A stretch of 64,000 nucleotides of DNA from a virus (Duplodnaviria; Caudoviricetes): IMG/VR virus record IMGVR_UViG_3300032330_001398; one strand, 5' to 3'. The translations under genes were made by a program, and so were the position numbers. Of the stretch, positions 2,284 to 62,447 are shown piece after piece (position 1 is the stretch's first letter; each line of letters begins with the position of its first letter). Below the pieces are notes generated by a model that was given only the letters and a program-made list of their open reading frames with translations, made no database searches and was not told the origin of the DNA.

Positions 2284-3727
2284 CTTGTATTCTTATCTTT
2301 ATAAGTGATTCGTTGTCAGCCAAGCCCGTATCGCCAGTTGGTTGATTCTTAAATTCGTTACGTGTTTTTAATTCTCTCAGTTTAGCATGTGACCCATTCA
2401 TTACCATGTTGATATAATCTCCATCATCTAAACCGGCACCATGTCTTGAAACAATTGGTACAAGTTTTCTATTACCAGCATTTGGACCATCTTCTGCCAA
2501 TTCTTCTGGAGATTTGATTTTAAATATAGAGAATGATGTACATAGCCAGATCAATCTATCTGAACCAGAAACAGCGTCCGTACTTTCTTTAGTTATACCG
2601 TCGCGGTTCAACTGTACAAATGATAAACATGGAATATCAAGTTTGACACATAGATTATGCAGCGAAGTAATTTGAAAACCAAGAGCTTGATATTCTTGTA
2701 TATTATTAGTGATAGAATTGGATGACATTAGTTTTAAATAGTCATATATAATCAGACAATCATTAGTTTTATTGTATTCGTCAGTCTTAACCTCTTGAAT
2801 CACCCATCTCTTAATTAGATTTAGTATTTGTTCAAACGGTTTTCCAGCAACGCTAATGTAAGAGTATGGAATAGATTCTAGAACCTTCATGGCATCTATT
2901 ACTTTTTCATTCTTTTCATCATCATCTATAAACCTTCCAGTAGCAATATCATTAATAGGAACACCGCTGATATTAGCTAACAATCTATTTAAATGATCCT
3001 CTTTGCTCATTTCTGTATCAAGCATTAGTACTGGAGTTCCCGCTTTTGCTACATTAAGGGCGACATTATCAGCAAATACCGACTTTCCAACTTTTGGTCT
3101 TGCAGAAACAAGATCCACGCACTTACGTCGCAAACCACCACCAATGGCTTCATCGTACTTGCTGAATCCAGTGGGAATACCGATAATATCACATTTGTTT
3201 TCTTGTAAGAATTGGATGTATTCATTGATATCTTTACCTATTTTTTGCGGAACATCTCCACCATCATCTTCTCTTAAAAATTCTGTTACGGGATTCTCTA
3301 ATATTTGTATAATATCGTTGATAGACTCAGACCCCGTTACATTATCCATATCTTTATGGACTTTTGCTGTTAATAGTTTAATCTTACGAGCAAATTCAAA
3401 CTTCTTGATTTGTAATGCGAAGTTTACAATATTATCTTTATTTACTGGGAAATCGAATAAAGATTTGATATACTTTAACTCTTGAGTTGTATTTATACTC
3501 TCAGACAAATCCAACTGAGATGCTGCTGATAGAATTGAGGGAATATCAACTTTTTGATCACTAACAATAATACGTTCTATGCACTTATATAGTATTTGAT
3601 TATTAGTATGACCAAATGTTTCATGGTTAATCAAATGAGATATAGCAACATATGAATCAACCCCATACTGTAGCAGCGAAGCTAAAACAGCACGTTCTGA
3701 ACCAATATCTGTAAGTTTAACATCCAT
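2246..3727 (-). CDS. dnaB: Replicative DNA helicase
   Basis: ERAVL N-terminus, GIPTGF, ARPKVGKS Walker A, IIYDYLKL, QLNR. Likely start MDVKL at 3727. Confidence 0.93.
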   Translation of the reverse strand: MDVKLTDIGSERAVLASLLQYGVDSYVAISHLINHETFGHTNNQILYKCIERIIVSDQKVDIPSILSAASQLDLSESINTTQELKYIKSLFDFPVNKDNIVNFALQIKKFEFARKIKLLTAKVHKDMDNVTGSESINDIIQILENPVTEFLREDDGGDVPQKIGKDINEYIQFLQENKCDIIGIPTGFSKYDEAIGGGLRRKCVDLVSARPKVGKSVFADNVALNVAKAGTPVLMLDTEMSKEDHLNRLLANISGVPINDIATGRFIDDDEKNEKVIDAMKVLESIPYSYISVAGKPFEQILNLIKRWVIQEVKTDEYNKTNDCLIIYDYLKLMSSNSITNNIQEYQALGFQITSLHNLCVKLDIPCLSFVQLNRDGITKESTDAVSGSDRLIWLCTSFSIFKIKSPEELAEDGPNAGNRKLVPIVSRHGAGLDDGDYINMVMNGSHAKLRELKTRNEFKNQPTGDTGLADNESLIKIRIQDGLTQTQDSLEQ

Positions 3728-3729
3728 AT

Positions 3730-4176
3730 TTATTTTCCAACACATCTATTACAACGATGGTACTCTCCAAATACAAACCTTTGATCAGCCTTAAATGATC
3801 GTCCACACACATGACATTCTACATCAATTTTCTTTGGTGCTTCACGCTTTCTTGGGCTGGGTGTTAGATCATAATCTGGAGAATTTACATCTCTAAATTC
3901 ACCCGTATCTTTCCACTCATTCTTTCTAGCTCTCACTGGTTCTTTTCTCCTATTTTGAGAATCTTTTGATTCTGCTCTTGTTACTGTAAAATCATGATCC
4001 ACAACAATTTGTGGAGGCTCCTTTGGCAAGTCTTTTTTAATATTCTTAGTTTTTGACTTGATTATTTTCTTGTCTTTATCTGGAGGGCTTTGTGACTCTA
4101 CAGAACTCAATAAAGCCCCAGCTAATTGTTTCTTTTGCTCATCAGTTAGTGAGTTAAAAAAATTATTTAGGTCCAT
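3730..4176 (-). CDS. Hypothetical protein with C-terminal zinc ribbon
   Basis: CHVC...CNRC; tightly coupled within the operon. Confidence 0.65.
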   Translation of the reverse strand: MDLNNFFNSLTDEQKKQLAGALLSSVESQSPPDKDKKIIKSKTKNIKKDLPKEPPQIVVDHDFTVTRAESKDSQNRRKEPVRARKNEWKDTGEFRDVNSPDYDLTPSPRKREAPKKIDVECHVCGRSFKADQRFVFGEYHRCNRCVGK

Positions 4177-6664: not shown

Positions 6665-7070
6665 ATAATATCAATGCTTCCATAAAACATTTGTCAATCG
6701 GATCTTCATCTTTTAAATCTTCAATTAGTTCTGGAGTAATCCACATTGTTTTTTTTACAATGTCTCCATATACTTTACCTATAGTTATAGCTTGTTTAGT
6801 ACTCTCCCCAAAGGTGCCTTTTAGTGACCTAACCAAGTATACACCATCAACATTACTGGTGTCAACTTCAACATAGTGTGATTTATACTGTAATCCCAGC
6901 TTATTGACTTTTAATTTTTTTGAGTCACAAATTTTTTTTAATTCCATCCAACTATTATGATTTGGTAGATAATATTCTATATCATTAGATAATGACACTC
7001 TTATCCATATATTGTATTTATTTTTACGATATTCTTCAAGCCATTGATCATGAGATGTTATAAAATTCAT
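6624..7070 (-). CDS. Hypothetical protein
   Basis: 148-aa ORF in the operon. Confidence 0.6.
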   Translation of the reverse strand: MNFITSHDQWLEEYRKNKYNIWIRVSLSNDIEYYLPNHNSWMELKKICDSKKLKVNKLGLQYKSHYVEVDTSNVDGVYLVRSLKGTFGESTKQAITIGKVYGDIVKKTMWITPELIEDLKDEDPIDKCFMEALILYDKEETKQTRAIQ

Positions 7071-7708: not shown

Positions 7709-8005
7709 CTATTGTTTTATTTTGGTTACACAAGACATAGTTTTTGTTGGTAATGGAGATCTCTTTCTTTTTTCATCAATCATTGAAGAAGCATTTTCTG
7801 TCATAACCGTTGTTCCATGCTGTCTAGCAAATTGCTCACTAGTTAAGGTTTTCTTGTTTTTTAAAGCTTTTGCTATGTAGCTTTCTACTGAGGATTGAGG
7901 TCTATTCAAATCTACAGCAATAGATTCTACACTTGTGCCAAGTTTAACTTGAGCATCGACATAAAAAGTTTCAACTTTGCTTAGTGGTCCTTTTTTATTA
8001 GCCAT
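7709..8005 (-). CDS. Hypothetical protein (possible HTH)
   Basis: SIAVDLNRPQSSVESY is HTH-like. Confidence 0.55.
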   Translation of the reverse strand: MANKKGPLSKVETFYVDAQVKLGTSVESIAVDLNRPQSSVESYIAKALKNKKTLTSEQFARQHGTTVMTENASSMIDEKRKRSPLPTKTMSCVTKIKQ

Positions 8006-18753: not shown

Positions 18754-20598
18754 TTACTGTGGAAAATGTACATATAATGAATATCTATTTTGGGTGGTTA
18801 CAACATTTCCGTTAGTTATATCAACACTACAAGGTTGTGGTAGTCTGTCGCTTTGAGTAGCAAATTTATAGTATTTTTGATATCTAGGATCATAATAAGC
18901 AGCTTTATACCATTCATGTAAACTTGGAATTACTGCTTTTTCCGATAGCGCTCTTTGATAATAGCCGCTATAATCTTCATTATTAGATAAATCATATGCG
19001 CCAGTTTCTGTGCTATCGGACGTTCCTCCAAAAGATGGTTTGTTATTGTGTAACCAATTACAATATCTAGCAGCATGAATCCAATTTAAGCCAACCGCTG
19101 GTCTGCTTAAATTGTAAGAATAAACAAAGTATCTATTTCCAACCGGCCGAGTGGAGTCAAATAGTAATTGGTTTCCATAACTAGATTCTAGAGCTACTAA
19201 TGAACCAGATACTAATTTCATGCCAATCGTACAGTATTTTAGATTAAGGTGTTGAGCGCCGGTTGGATCAACAGTATTTAAATATGTAACGAATTCAGAA
19301 AATGTTAGTGGGTTTTTTTTAATCCAATATGGATAATTAACTGTTCCAATATTTTGTAAACCTAGTTCTAGTGTGGATGGTATGTCATACCTATATCTAC
19401 TTTCTCCTTGTGTTATTGTGTCGCTAGGATTTGAAATATTTCCAACCTCTGCCCATAAACTACTTTCATTTTGTGGAGGTGGTGAACACCTTACAATTCT
19501 AAGTCCAGTAGGATTATTGTCACTTTTTTGTAGAGTACTATTATAATAAGTTGATAGATTTGGAGCATTTTTTGCTGGAAATGTATAGTGTATCGCAACT
19601 CTTTGATTAAAGTAGGTGATTTGATCATTCGTTAATATGAAAGCGTTGTCGTATACTGATCCACCAAGAGCTACTCTAGTACTTCCAGCGTAATAAGACC
19701 CAGCACCGGCGAAATCATCTATATATTCATAAATATTTCCATCTTGACCATATGTTCCGTAATAACTTGGGTTAGTTGATGTGCTAACATTTACTGGAAG
19801 AATCTCTAGTTTTGATGTATTATTATAAGTTGGTCCTGTTCCGGCATCATTATAATACGTATAGCCAAGAGTTTGATTTCCATAGGCCGCGTATGTTATT
19901 GCTATTCCGGGAACTGCCGTTGTGGTAGTTGTTGTTGAAGTTGTTGGGCCAGATGTTGTAGTTGTTGTTGGGCCAGATGTGGTGGTGGTGGTGGTGGTTG
20001 TTGGACCAGATGTTGTGGTGGTGGTTGTTGGACCAGATGTTGTGGTCGTTGTTGGACCAGATGTAGTAGTTGGTCCAGATGTTGTTGTGGTCGTTGGACC
20101 AAGCGTGGTAGTGATAATACTACAGTCTAATGTTCCACACTCAACAGCATAAATACTTAAAGTTAATGGATTACTCCAATATCCAATTGCTGGAATTTTA
20201 GTTGAAGAAGCGTTAACAATTTTAATTGATATTTCGTCATTATTACTAACATATGAGTAAGCTATTACTGTTCCAGATAAAAGTTCTCTTGATGGAGAAA
20301 CCGATATAGAATATGCTTTTGATGTTAAAACGCCGGGAACATTTACTGTTAGAGTGTGACTTGAATTTACTAATATTTCTGGGAGAGTATAAACGCAAGA
20401 TCTACGTGTAAAAATATTATTGTTGTTATCTCCACCAATTGATGGTAGTTGACTCCAAGTTTTTACACCGTCACCAACTTTTAATAAATTTGCATCGATA
20501 GCAAAAGCTGGTTCTCCAGAAGCTAAAACTGGATTTGCATCATTAAACTCAGAAAGAGGTCCGCGACGAATTTTAATAGTATCATAAAAAGTAGTCAC
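18754..20598 (-). CDS. Fibre/adhesin: Mtd_N + Thr-rich linker + FGE-sulfatase/C-type-lectin-fold domain
   Basis: IKIRRG..LASGEP..LKVGDG; (SGPTTTT)n; SYYGTYGQDGNIYE, WIHAARYCNWLHN, ETGAY, EWYKAAYY. Confidence 0.8.
   Translation of the reverse strand: MTTFYDTIKIRRGPLSEFNDANPVLASGEPAFAIDANLLKVGDGVKTWSQLPSIGGDNNNNIFTRRSCVYTLPEILVNSSHTLTVNVPGVLTSKAYSISVSPSRELLSGTVIAYSYVSNNDEISIKIVNASSTKIPAIGYWSNPLTLSIYAVECGTLDCSIITTTLGPTTTTTSGPTTTSGPTTTTTSGPTTTTTTSGPTTTTTTTTSGPTTTTTSGPTTSTTTTTTAVPGIAITYAAYGNQTLGYTYYNDAGTGPTYNNTSKLEILPVNVSTSTNPSYYGTYGQDGNIYEYIDDFAGAGSYYAGSTRVALGGSVYDNAFILTNDQITYFNQRVAIHYTFPAKNAPNLSTYYNSTLQKSDNNPTGLRIVRCSPPPQNESSLWAEVGNISNPSDTITQGESRYRYDIPSTLELGLQNIGTVNYPYWIKKNPLTFSEFVTYLNTVDPTGAQHLNLKYCTIGMKLVSGSLVALESSYGNQLLFDSTRPVGNRYFVYSYNLSRPAVGLNWIHAARYCNWLHNNKPSFGGTSDSTETGAYDLSNNEDYSGYYQRALSEKAVIPSLHEWYKAAYYDPRYQKYYKFATQSDRLPQPCSVDITNGNVVTTQNRYSLYVHFPQ
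19917..20112. repeat. Variable-length SGP-Tn peptide repeat
   Basis: gttgg(a/g/t)ccagatgt unit repeated ~6 times with different Thr run lengths. Confidence 0.88.
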
Positions 20599-42327: not shown

Positions 42328-42424
42328 CTTATCCTCCTTGATATTAATCTTGATAGTTAAGAAAAGACCCCCGAAAGTGTGCATTGTTAAGAGGCATCGG
42401 GGGATTTATCTTTTCCTTTAAATA

Positions 42425-42640: not shown

Positions 42641-42697
42641 AATATTCTCCTAAGTTAAAACTATGCCACATCCATGTGGCTCAAAACATAATACCAG

Positions 42698-43047
42698 TGG
42701 ACTAGAGGGGAGTCGAACCCCTGTCCAGAATAAATATCAATATAAACTTCTACATTATTATTCAGTTGTTATCACACTACTGACAAAGCTATCAGAATTA
42801 TCTGAATCAGATTGAGTACAATCATTATTCCTATTTATGTCTGGTAGGACTACCATATCCGATTATCGGAGTCAGCATGATTTGGTAATAAGGCTCATGC
42901 CGCCCCACTCATTACCTAATTAATTAGGCAGCGAGAGCGAGAGTTACTTCGCCAATTAACATTTTTAATCGGCTTTTATACTGGCCAACCGATCAACCAG
43001 TTAATGCAGTTTATATCTATTTTACCTGTCGATACCTTTACTAGCCC
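42698..43047 (-). ncRNA. ssrA: tmRNA
   Basis: 5' GGGCTAG-TAAAGGTATCGAC; 3' GACAGGGGTTCGACTCCCCT-CTAGTCC-A; G3:U Ala identity pair; tag ORF GEVTLALAA* at 42953-42924. Confidence 0.93.
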
Positions 43048-56811: not shown

Positions 56812-57141
56812 GTTCAGAGGATGCTAGATTCTCCAGTTTTTTAATTCCGTTTTGAGTTTCTTCTCAATGCCCGTAATGATCTTTTGAACAGGTACACTTA
56901 CTGCATAATCTTTTTTATATGCTGTGATAGCATCTAGGATCTTCCACATTTCATTTGCTGATAGTTCAATGTTACAATTATTCATGGGTTGCCCGTGGTA
57001 TGGTTGGGAGGAAATTGATTACTTTATTAATTACAAAGTTACTTTCTCGCTTTATTCACCTTTATATAGCAATGACCACACAAATATCATAATCATAAGC
57101 TCTATCAATTGATCTCCCTAGAGTGATGAAAACTATCACAG

Positions 57142-57217
57142 TAGGGCGTGTACGAGTCGAACGTACCTATGGACACCTTATAAGAGTGTTGGATGCTACC
57201 GGCTTACCTTACGCCCC
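57142..57217 (-). tRNA. tRNA-Ile(UAU), G1:U72, no encoded CCA
   Basis: GGGGCGT...ACACT-CTTATAA-GGTGT...GTACG-TTCGACT-CGTAC-ACGCCCT-A; own promoter TTGACA-N17-TATAAT at 57238-57266. Confidence 0.82.
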
Positions 57218-59719: not shown

Positions 59720-60112
59720 CTACTTCTTGAGAAAATCTTTTCGTGGACTCACGAATACTCTTCGTCCAACAGTGACCAGAGTATAATAAGTAAGATTATC
59801 GTAATTATTTGGGCCATCTGAACATCTCCAGTAGGGTGCAATTTTTGGATCATACATGAGTTCTTTCCATCCTTCTACGTTATAAGAATCGTAGGGAACG
59901 GAAGTATAGTCAGTGCAACGAATATACCCACACACATCACGCTTCTGACTAGCGAACACGCGCTGTGCTTTACGCTTTTCATTCTTAAGGATGCAATTAT
60001 ACATAACAAGACCATCTTTGGCTGGATCATGATAGACAGGAACCTGTCCAAACTTTATCTGCCAAAACTTATAATACTTACCAGCCCCAAGATGAAACCT
60101 AACGTCAAACAT
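59720..60112 (-). CDS. Hypothetical protein
   Basis: VRFHLGAG..Y..WQIK motif. Confidence 0.55.
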   Translation of the reverse strand: MFDVRFHLGAGKYYKFWQIKFGQVPVYHDPAKDGLVMYNCILKNEKRKAQRVFASQKRDVCGYIRCTDYTSVPYDSYNVEGWKELMYDPKIAPYWRCSDGPNNYDNLTYYTLVTVGRRVFVSPRKDFLKK

Positions 60113-60479
60113 TTTTAACAACCTCCACAACACAGCCCTGAGAACGAAGTTCAGATGCCATCTTCACCGCAACGTCACTTTCTGTATTGATGGAGTTCCA
60201 CCTACCACCAACATAGTCGTTGTCTGGGGTACTCCATCGACCACGTACAACATCCAACCAATTCTTGGCATCCTTCAATCCCCAACCAAGATGGGAACGG
60301 ATGATCTTGATACAAGAAACGAAGTTGTCGCATGGGACGCTATGAAGAACCATAGTGACCTTAAGTTCCCCACACTTTACTTCCAAAGCCCCAATGATGC
60401 GGTTATACATATCAACGTTGCCCTCGCTCTGAGTAGCAAGCCAAATCGCTTCACGAACCGTCATCTCAACCGTAATCAT
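60105..60479 (-). CDS. Ribosomal protein bL12 C-terminal-domain-like protein
   Basis: CIKIIRSHLGWGLKDAKNWLD...MASELRSQGCVVEV resembles IKVVR..TGLGLKEAK..L...GA.VEV. Confidence 0.65.
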   Translation of the reverse strand: MITVEMTVREAIWLATQSEGNVDMYNRIIGALEVKCGELKVTMVLHSVPCDNFVSCIKIIRSHLGWGLKDAKNWLDVVRGRWSTPDNDYVGGRWNSINTESDVAVKMASELRSQGCVVEVVKNV

Positions 60480-60508: not shown

Positions 60509-61383
60509 TTAGTTTAGTTTGTCAAGGGCTGGATAATCTTTTGGATAATGTTCTTTTGGTGGTGGTGGTTTTGGTTGTCCCTCATCTGGCATCCACCACG
60601 GAGCGTCGAAATAATCTACATTGCCGGGAGCTTCACCACAGTCAATATTGTGAATACAAAAAGGATCATTATAGTTTATTCTATATGTTCCACGCCACAC
60701 ACCAATAGGCTCACCATAATAGATGATCTTTTGACCATTAATAGGGCGACGAGGCCCAAAGAAACTAATCCATTCCATTATTTAAGTCCTTACTATGAAA
60801 TACAACTATGACACCAACAAAAGTTTTCGTGACCCCTGATATGCTCTTTCTTCATTCGTTCAATAATTTCTGGATCAGTAACATTTTTGTCTTTGATTAG
60901 ATCATCAATAGTATAAAGAGTACCATCCTCTTTATATCTACAATCATCATTTCCCAAATCATACGCATCTCGATAATACTGAACAAACATTACTTTCTCT
61001 CCTTTAGATAGATCATTTCCAACCCTCCGGCATAGGAATCTCTTGAAAGCTAGTATAGCATACCACTAGATCACTGTCAAATGGTATCCATTCTCCATCA
61101 CCATCTTTATTCCAATCGCCCCAATCGCCATCGTACCAAGTCAAGGGGATAGGAAAAGAATAATCCTTAACACAACATAGATATTGACCATTCAAAATAG
61201 GATTATCGTAATGCCAGTTCATTATATCCTCATTACAATATTTTCGTAGGCTTTAATCAGATCGATACCACTAATGTTATGCTCTGCTGCTAGGTTCATA
61301 GCTATAGTCTTAGCTGGACTCATAACCATCATGGGGTTTTTTAGAACCCTAAGAATATATACCACTGCTTCTTCTTTAGTCAT
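60509..61383 (-). other. Small hypothetical genes (60509-60778, 60793-60990, 61013-61222, ~61222-61383)
   Basis: Coupled ORFs; two begin with DUF551-like MxW.. motifs. Confidence 0.5.
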
Positions 61384-61403
61384 CTCTTCTCCTTTGTATT
61401 GTT

Positions 61404-61487
61404 ATCACACGGCTATATGGCGTTGCAACGTCGAGGCCGATCTGGCCACATATAGTTAAGGAAGGTTCTCCTTCTCATCCGTGTGAT
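61404..61487 (-). ncRNA. Unclassified ~84-nt multibranch structured RNA
   Basis: Closing ATCACACGG/CCGTGTGAT 9-bp stem, inner CTATATG/CATATAG stem, three small hairpins. Confidence 0.6.
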
Positions 61488-61498
61488 TTTATTAAACG

Positions 61499-61730
61499 TG
61501 GTGAGGACGCGATCCCCCATAGATTGGTATTGTTAGTTAACGTTAACCCCGTTAACACCACCTATCTTCGCTCAGAGGCATTCTAAGATAGATGGCTTTC
61601 AATAGGTTATCCCAACCTAGTCCAAGGCATGGACCCGCGTAGTTTGTATTGTAAAGCAGATTGGGTTGAGCCATAATCGACAGCCATTTAACCGTAGCTT
61701 CTTTGATATCATTCTGCTAGCGGCCCTCAT
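61499..61730 (-). ncRNA. Unclassified ~230-nt structured RNA
   Basis: Terminal stem plus at least five internal helices, no ORF of 60 aa or more, consensus promoter directly upstream. Confidence 0.68.
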
Positions 61731-61744
61731 CTGCTTCTTCAACT

Positions 61745-61772
61745 ATTATACCAGACGATTCTTTCCTGTCAA
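61745..61772 (-). promoter_or_regulatory. Consensus sigma70 promoter pointing into the structured RNAs
   Basis: TTGACA-GGAAAGAATCGTCTGG-TATAAT. Confidence 0.8.
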
Positions 61773-62075
61773 GTGGCGATTTTTGTATTCTTTGATGTCA
61801 CCGTTCATCACAATCTTTTCTTCTTCGTAAGGTACGGCCACACGACGATAGAATTCTTGTTTTACATTCTCAACAACGCCCGTGATCATCGCAATCTTTG
61901 CATAAGACGTACTTCCCATTACTTGCCCAATCAGCCTAGTCATACAGTAATTCAGATCGCCCAACACTGTGACCAAATCTTGATTATCAAAATCACTATG
62001 ATTAGTAATTATGTTAGCAAGATCGTCTATGGATCGGTCTAATATCTTGCGGCTTGTTTCATCAATGTACGGCAT
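61746..62075 (-). CDS. Hypothetical phage protein
   Basis: MPYI...GDLNY...ENVKQEFYRR...PYE..KI..NGD. Confidence 0.7.
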   Translation of the reverse strand: MPYIDETSRKILDRSIDDLANIITNHSDFDNQDLVTVLGDLNYCMTRLIGQVMGSTSYAKIAMITGVVENVKQEFYRRVAVPYEEEKIVMNGDIKEYKNRHLTGKNRLV

Positions 62076-62224
62076 TATATATCTCTCTCTTCTACAACTG
62101 TTGAACTTTCACAATCCATACACATAGCATTATCATATGGGCCACCAACTAGATTACCATCTTGGTCAACCCAAGCATCGTATCCTATGTTGCTGCTGCC
62201 ACACTCACTACATATTGTACTCAT
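62075..62224 (-). CDS. 49-aa zinc-ribbon protein
   Basis: Read by hand: MSTICSECGSSNI...CMDCES; its stop overlaps the next ATG. Confidence 0.55.
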   Translation of the reverse strand: MSTICSECGSSNIGYDAWVDQDGNLVGGPYDNAMCMDCESSTVVEERDI

Positions 62225-62447
62225 CTCGCCACCCCTTTTCAATGTCTTTGCGTGTTCGCTGACGCTTGGGGCGGTTGTCCATAACCGTATCCCGATGCTC
62301 CTTGTGTCCCGTAGGAACTTCCCACGGTTTCTTGACCTTGAGCTTGACCACGTTGCGGCGTGGCCTCATATCTTCGTTGTTGTGGTGCATAATCATGCCA
62401 TATTCCATTCTCATGTAGGTAAAAGACTTTATCGACATTCGGATCAT
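62208..62447 (-). CDS. Small basic protein overlapping ORF 62239-62634
   Basis: Internal promoter TTGACA-N16-TACAAT at 62463-62490; true start may be ~62397. Confidence 0.45.
   Translation of the reverse strand: MIRMSIKSFTYMRMEYGMIMHHNNEDMRPRRNVVKLKVKKPWEVPTGHKEHRDTVMDNRPKRQRTRKDIEKGWRDEYNM

Follow-up and report, generated by a model that had tools for sequence, protein, structure and literature searches.

The 84-nt element at 61404-61487 on the minus strand of the 64,000-nt stretch of phage DNA analysed here (the window) is an evolutionarily maintained folded RNA of an uncatalogued family. Module C, as we call it, is a self-contained RNA domain, one of the optional cassettes from which a polycistronic array of small structured RNAs is built, and it probably acts as an RNA in its own right. 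A consensus early host-type promoter lies ahead of modules A, B and C; unstructured A/C-rich linkers set these apart, and in the predicted folds every array module closes on its own terminal stem. Sequence comparison of related phages shows that modules have been gained, lost and reordered at these linkers.

Folding with ViennaRNA places module C in nested three-way junctions, a structure that is at once the minimum free energy (MFE) fold, the centroid and the fold drawn in a preliminary description of the locus made from the sequence alone; sequence and helices lie at the coordinates given above. The topology is P1-P2-P3(P3a, P3b), with no four-way junction: a closing stem, P1 (8-9 bp), a hairpin, P2, and a 7-bp helix, P3, bearing P3a and the palindromic P3b. 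The MFE of -29 kcal/mol compares with -18.1 +/- 3.0 kcal/mol for dinucleotide-preserving shuffles (n=200), none of which was equally stable (z -3.64), and the fold has withstood the comparison that the preliminary description named as able to refute it. The GC content of the element (0.50) is above that of the 362-nt gap in which it lies (0.45) and of the whole window (0.35). One of its hairpins, originally read as CGUU GC AACG, must be redrawn as CGU-UGCA-ACG, with 3 bp and a 4-nt loop, and P2 of the window variant can pair in two registers, GAAGG/CCUUC (the MFE) and AAGGA/UCCUU (by eye).

Homologues were sought with a regular expression and then with a covariance model (R1), yielding seven sources in 735 kb of array loci; after one pattern scan each of IMG/VR and of JGI metagenome contigs the set comprised 34 copies with 18 distinct sequences. 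The covariance model scores every one of them at 82-100 bits, and the exact window sequence is present in three metagenome contigs. Copies are 74, 75, 76, 77, 84 or 88 nt long, and no frame is open throughout all of them; on these grounds a 35-aa ORF at 61413-61520 was rejected as a gene. Standard pairs fill 98.8% of the pair cells in the 18 distinct homologues, such that P1, P2, P3, P3a and P3b are all kept, which answers in the affirmative the check on homologous loci for which the preliminary description had asked. Changes on both sides occur at 10 of the 24 pairs (P1 2, P3 6/7, P2 1 and P3b 1) and none of 500 shuffles reached the observed pairing and covariation values, figures to be read in the light of the homologues being close relatives from lake phages, of covariation counts that include inherited changes, and of a shuffle control that is not a probability. 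When the 3' partners were slid by 1-3 columns, pairing fell to 23-55%. Seven G-U cells on the minus strand agree with the orientation of the promoter in placing module C on the transcribed strand.

An unfitted MAFFT alignment gave the same covariation picture, and from the unfitted alignment RNAalifold independently found P1, P2 and P3, with a different distal fold. That alternative has no double changes and a new helix with only 83% of its cells paired, whereas in the P3a/P3b arrangement covariation is seen for the pairs 44-74 and 64-71 (alignment columns), which makes it the better supported. In the resulting consensus, P1 is AUCAYRCG/CGYRUGAU, 8 bp long, so the perfect 9-bp closing stem of the preliminary description stands for the window/L081 variant, the only one with the ninth, G-C, pair, and does not extend to the family. 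P2 is a hairpin of variable length (3-9 bp); it is followed by J2/3 (UUUA), the 7-bp P3, a U, P3a (GGC-loop-GCC), UAGA (UCGA in the window), P3b (CRU-UGCA-AYG), a C and a single bulged A or C, after which P1 closes. The junction nucleotides UUUA, UAGA and C73 are conserved in the family.

P3b forms an invariant 10-nt palindrome, CRUUGCAAYG, in which the UGCA loop does not vary and the flanking pair covaries. Its predicted stability as a hairpin alone is 0 to -0.6 kcal/mol, as against -14 to -17 kcal/mol for a P3b self-duplex. The predicted gain on homodimerisation averages 13 kcal/mol and drops to 7 when the loop is changed from UGCA to GAAA (~6 lost). Since most hairpin RNAs are predicted by such energy models to form domain-swapped dimers, as the -7 kcal/mol remaining after the loop mutation illustrates, the idea that the palindrome could join two copies of module C is only suggestive. 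We also note that the leading module of the L081 array, Z (L081:1290-1400, minus strand), contains GGGUUGCAAGGUUGCAC, including the UUGCAA hexamer that is found in the palindromic loop, and is a possible kissing partner for module C in that array.

Searches against known RNA families returned nothing for this element or its neighbours. Rfam 15 over 61384-61745 gave no match at gathering thresholds, nor at E <= 10 with permissive filters, so that neither the riboswitch nor the ribozyme models that had been suggested as a source of identity apply; among the latter, the self-cleaving models (hammerhead, twister, twister-sister, pistol, hatchet and HDV) do not match module C. The L001, L002, L081, L094 and L105 arrays gave only true or near tRNAs elsewhere, with nothing for A, B, C or D. 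The earlier statement that the element is not a tRNA is borne out: ARAGORN calls four tRNAs elsewhere in the window and no tRNA or tmRNA at module C, which has no cloverleaf, T-loop or anticodon arm and no match to the Rfam tRNA model. Covariance models of GOLLD, ROOL and OLE do not match the window gap or the homologous arrays even at E <= 5-10. A TROVE/Ro60 domain (PF05731) is absent from five complete relatives, in a search for which control genomes were positive, and is not among the 10 large window ORFs scanned. A literature search found no description of these arrays, and blastn of 61200-62100 against the INPHARED phage genomes gave no match, hence no cultured relative.

The same scans turned up several features elsewhere in the window. 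A tRNA-Ile(UAU) called by ARAGORN at 57141-57217 (minus strand) falls below the gathering threshold of the Rfam tRNA model. An Rfam abiF RNA motif lies at 42367-42403 (minus strand; 38.3 bits against a threshold of 37), ~290 nt downstream of a tmRNA gene (42695-43047); as an abortive-infection-associated motif inside a phage, it could be a mimic. A 614-aa ORF at 18754-20598 (minus strand) joins an N-terminus of the Mtd_N (major tropism determinant) type to an FGE-sulfatase/C-type-lectin-like C-terminus, and Mtd-type proteins are the usual target of diversity-generating retroelements. Finally, a 124-aa early ORF at 60105-60479 (minus strand) has a sub-threshold match to the C-terminal domain of ribosomal protein L7/L12 (21.9 bits, cut-off 25.9).

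Module C lies in a 362-nt gap (61384-61745) that separates a 109-aa ORF (DUF6899) from a 53-aa ORF. A sigma-70-type promoter, TTGACA-16 nt-TATAAT, at 61745-61772 on the minus strand, with 12/12 consensus matches and a TG before the -10 box, lies within the 3' end of the DUF6899 ORF and has a predicted start near 61738; an equivalent promoter stands at the head of the array in L081, L094, L105 and L117. The whole gap folds as three separate exterior domains on the minus strand. Module A (~83 nt, 61654-61736) is the first of these and is conserved in L001, L002, L081, L094 and L105, and module B (~144 nt, 61497-61640) is a widespread core module whose 5' core pattern finds matches in IMG/VR and whose helices covary as judged by eye. 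The preliminary description was right that there is structured RNA upstream of module C, but what it took for one larger RNA is these two modules, and the gap that it put at ~11 nt is 9 nt; that the element forms one cassette within a bigger modular array escaped it.

The linkers that set the three domains apart are short. Between A and B lies ACAAUACAA (61644-61652, minus strand), an exact copy of a linker that also separates modules in related arrays; between B and C lies UUUAAUAAA (61488-61496, minus strand), an AAUACA(A)-linker variant whose place is taken elsewhere by AUUCAUACA or CCAAUACA; and from C to the ribosome-binding site runs AACAAUACAA (61394-61403, minus strand), which in most other copies precedes module D. 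Downstream, the Shine-Dalgarno (SD) sequence AGGAG (61389-61393, minus strand) is placed 5 nt ahead of the ATG at 61383 of the 53-aa ORF (61222-61383, minus strand), an early ORF with no Pfam family and with homologues in L002 (91% identical) and L081 (44%), with which the array is co-transcribed in this phage. It had been argued from the lack of a U-tract that the element is not a terminator; what follows module C is AACAAUACAA, and there is no terminator-like site anywhere in 60900-62300. The window array runs without a terminator into the 53-aa ORF, and a small early operon thus has module C physically within its 5' leader; for annotation, the 362-nt 'intergenic' stretch should be read as RNA genes, not as an empty leader.

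ACAATACAA has five exact copies in the 64 kb, on both strands, two of them in the gap (61644-61652 and 61394-61402). With up to one mismatch it is not enriched across the window (45 found, 38 expected), which makes the linker a local feature of the array. The notion that the linkers serve as internal promoters was dropped, there being no usable -35 ahead of array linkers; in one L081 5' UTR the linker 9-mer overlaps a TACAAT -10 box.

Related loci show how the array changes between phages. The 109-aa protein has 150 relatives among IMG/VR contigs, many of them 200-240 kb, and the gap is common only to the closest ones. In L002, where the flanking proteins are ~90% identical, A and B are kept and C is absent, a different module of ~186 nt, D, replacing it before the same SD and ORF. 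In L081, where module C is 95% identical, a TTGACA-17-TAGAAT promoter drives an ORF-free unit, Z-A-B-C-D, and beyond this unit come a palindromic element, also intergenic, and then a new promoter. The remaining orders are A-B-C in the window, A-B-D in L002, B-C-D in L117, A-B-C-D-F in L094 and A-B-E-B'-C-D-F in L105. The 5' core pattern of module B found 78 stretches in IMG/VR; about 72 are real arrays, in which B is followed by an AAUACAA-type linker and then by one of many different modules; the same linker type occurs in 70+ related arrays. The complete arrays, 65 of them distinct, span 272-1204 nt, and a rough greedy seed annotation, which left ~40 segment types over, some coding sequence included, points to dozens of segments with no relation to one another. 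Segmentation of long arrays by MFE exterior loops, with or without a span limit, and single-linkage clustering merged neighbouring modules. What these loci share is a driving promoter, modules that close separately, no conserved ORF, linkers of the ACAAUACAA type and content that has been reshuffled.

Some of these arrays have features of their own. Module F of L105 (L105:4173-4245, plus strand) encloses a tRNA look-alike (37.8 bits) with the T-arm GGTTCAAATCC and a disrupted anticodon stem, so that a tRNA-shaped domain is set inside a larger closing helix. At ~3660-3820 (plus strand) in L105, directly upstream of C, lies a diverged second module B (B', beginning GAGTCCGTGC); its presence in addition to B indicates that modules can duplicate within an array. 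In L081, intergenic repeats at 690-790, 1500-1580, 6900-7000 and 7840-7900 (minus strand), composed of palindromes of the GACGTAAGT / ACTTACGTC type and a GC box resembling GGGGCGGCCG, stand on either side of each early transcription unit, the RNA array too, and look like 90-bp double-palindrome elements of the window. Arrays of tRNAs lie ~2.5 kb from the RNA array in L001 and L002.

Module C itself is a minority component. It is present in one copy in one of five complete, terminally redundant relatives of 200-244 kb and absent from the other four, and it occurs in ~6 of the 63 arrays found via module B (about one in ten). The co-occurrence with the upstream RNA that the preliminary description proposed to check therefore holds in one direction, since B precedes C in 32 of 33 located copies, but not in the other, with C absent from ~90% of B arrays. 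Downstream, another structured RNA module follows in 25 of the 33 (mostly D, another module in two), and an SD and a p53-like ORF follow in the remaining eight, the window included. A relaxed C pattern run over prokaryotic genomes, one per species, picked out 21 stretches; the covariance model upheld none of these (best E 0.39), and, as far as this species-genome test reaches, the family appears confined to phage DNA. A scan of IMG/VR with the 17-mer GGCCAGATCGGCCTCGA gave 78 stretches, which, apart from L081, were taken as chance matches to unrelated contigs and left unused.

The preliminary description offered three identities for the element: a riboswitch-like leader, a small ribozyme processing the upstream RNA, or a separate sRNA. 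Only the last fits. Module C mostly stands before other RNA modules and is missing from about nine arrays in ten, a distribution that disfavours both a riboswitch and an array-processing ribozyme and favours a separate RNA. As an aptamer for the 53-aa ORF, it would act through P2, whose AAGGAG and anti-SD-like CCUUCCUU would compete with the real SD. The window variant invites this reading, in that module C ends 10 nt ahead of AGGAG and the SD hexamer recurs exactly in P2, where its partner is a pyrimidine strand equally able to pair with the true SD. The same 84-nt variant, to which the AAGGAG of P2 is specific, however, precedes module D in L081, L244, L248, L249 and L257, and the copies that are adjacent to a ribosome-binding site mostly carry a different P2 (GGAUAUUAUCC). 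Moreover, P1 and the SD do not overlap, neither a terminator nor another expression platform is present, and only the eight gene-adjoining copies are placed to act in this way, making a riboswitch very unlikely. A new class of self-cleaving ribozyme that cuts the array at its linkers is suggested by the compact nested three-way junctions, by the conserved junction nucleotides and by the position of C between other RNAs that might need separating. An array-maturing ribozyme would be expected wherever B and the linkers occur, yet ~90% of arrays and four of five complete genomes without C keep the same linkers and neighbours, and we regard this possibility, too, as highly improbable. The resemblance to the hammerhead points the same way: module C has a three-way junction of similar size and, in the window, CGGAUGAG, with GGAUGAG after the closing stem recalling CUGAUGA, but it has G at U4 and CUUAAC after P2 in place of the GAAA that should follow stem II. 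The GAUGAG is confined to one variant and unconserved across the 18, the other 16 variants having sequences such as GGUGGAG, GUUGGA and GUUGGG instead.

Three further explanations concern the array as a whole or the DNA that encodes it. If the modules were parts of a single large composite RNA, possibly multimeric in the manner of GOLLD and ROOL, C would lie at their periphery as a variable domain, with its palindrome a device for assembly. Consistent with this, a single promoter always serves all the modules of an array, C comes nearly always directly after B, the invariant self-complementary P3b could form intermolecular contacts, and GOLLD-type RNAs, whose halves are variable, likewise stem from phage-like DNA of lakes (PMC12286853). 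Yet the absence of any match to the GOLLD, ROOL and OLE models, the self-closing modules with their unstructured flanking linkers and the freely varying content, order and length of the arrays all speak for independent units, and an unsystematic search found no inter-module covariation; we consider a composite RNA unlikely. The array might alternatively serve in cis as the leader of the early operon, protecting the mRNA from 5'-end-dependent decay or Rho termination, or acting on the transcribing polymerase as does HK022 put RNA, and would then do nothing in trans. It does begin a few nucleotides past a strong early promoter, in the window and seven other copies C leads straight to the SD and ORF with no terminator between, and the last linker doubles as an A/C-rich stretch ahead of the SD. 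Against such a role, which seems quite unlikely, stand the ORF-free unit of L081, in which C is followed by D, a palindromic element and a new promoter, the dispensability of C for the same downstream gene in L002, and covariation in five helices that far exceeds the needs of a 5' stabiliser. Least probable of all, to our minds extremely so, is a function at the level of DNA, whether as a cluster of protein-binding palindromes or as a mobile element of the miniature inverted-repeat kind, flanked by target-site duplications. Terminal inverted repeats (ATCACACGG...CCGTGTGAT) between similar A/C-rich direct repeats, differing presence among relatives and the 10-bp perfect palindrome of P3b would suit it, but C is single-copy per genome in an unvarying array context, its internal helices covary and include G-U pairs, which the opposite strand could form only as A-C mismatches, and it belongs to a promoter-driven unit with other covarying RNAs.

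We therefore return to module C as a separate structured RNA of the array. As such, it would be a stable RNA with a protein or a second RNA as its binding partner, or would act as a decoy; it would probably be released from its neighbours, possibly by cleavage at the linkers, or at least be functionally independent of them, and would not serve the adjoining gene or RNA as a sensor or a processing device. We infer release and stability by analogy with phage tRNA clusters and with T4 rnaC and rnaD. The near-constant presence of B directly before C, on the other hand, could mean functional coupling to B and would then weigh against independence. A bolder version, which we hold to be improbable as it stands, makes module C an adaptor or decoy that homodimerises by way of its palindromic arm, in phage 'RNA arsenals' of dozens of unrelated structured RNAs, in which each RNA neutralises or hijacks a different host RNA-binding or defence protein; were it true, early, cassette-shuffled arrays would be the RNA counterpart of variable anti-defence gene islands.

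Covarying structured RNAs without a known family are rare finds, and module C is one of a whole set in a single early transcript, exchanged cassette-like among about a hundred uncultured lake phages of 160-240 kb. For this family there is now a consensus structure, with boundaries, a covariance model and a pattern of presence and absence. Were the modules to act on host factors as decoys or adaptors, these arrays would represent a new, RNA-based layer of phage-host conflict.

Among known systems, GOLLD and ROOL are alike in being elaborate phage-associated noncoding RNAs of lake metagenomes, found near tRNA genes and capable of RNA-RNA self-association (PMC12286853), although they have a conserved architecture of 500-800 nt where the arrays described here consist of short, independently closing modules in free combinations. 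The pRNA of phi29 is likewise a phage-encoded early RNA with a three-way junction, and it multimerises via complementary loops; however, module C does not match the Rfam pRNA model, pRNA is essential whereas module C is dispensable in most relatives, and phi29 belongs to a type of phage unrelated to this one (DnaB, RecA, RNR, 160-240 kb). YrlA and other Y RNA-like RNAs that partner Ro60/Rsr are similarly modular and clustered, and some wrap a tRNA-like domain, as does module F of L105, but the five complete relatives have no TROVE/Ro60 gene and module C has no Rfam-recognised signature of a Ro-binding stem.

The closest likenesses are to clusters of stable RNAs in other phages. Phage tRNA arrays resemble this one in being tandem, closely spaced, self-closing RNAs that are read from one promoter and gained or lost as cassettes, and differ in the tRNA features that module C lacks. 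In T4, rnaC and rnaD (species 1 and 2) are structured non-tRNA RNAs of ~100 nt, encoded in the tRNA gene cluster and transcribed from host-type promoters; they are dispensable, vary among relatives and are not known to have been explained in the decades since their discovery. To our knowledge, they are the only textbook parallel to these arrays. Like module C, they are structured non-tRNA RNAs of a large lytic phage in a polycistronic RNA cluster, a likeness drawn by description, since there is no Rfam model. The arrays reported here differ from the T4 cluster in comprising many unrelated module families joined by a ACAAUACAA-type linker, in mostly having no true tRNAs, and in often running into protein-coding early genes.
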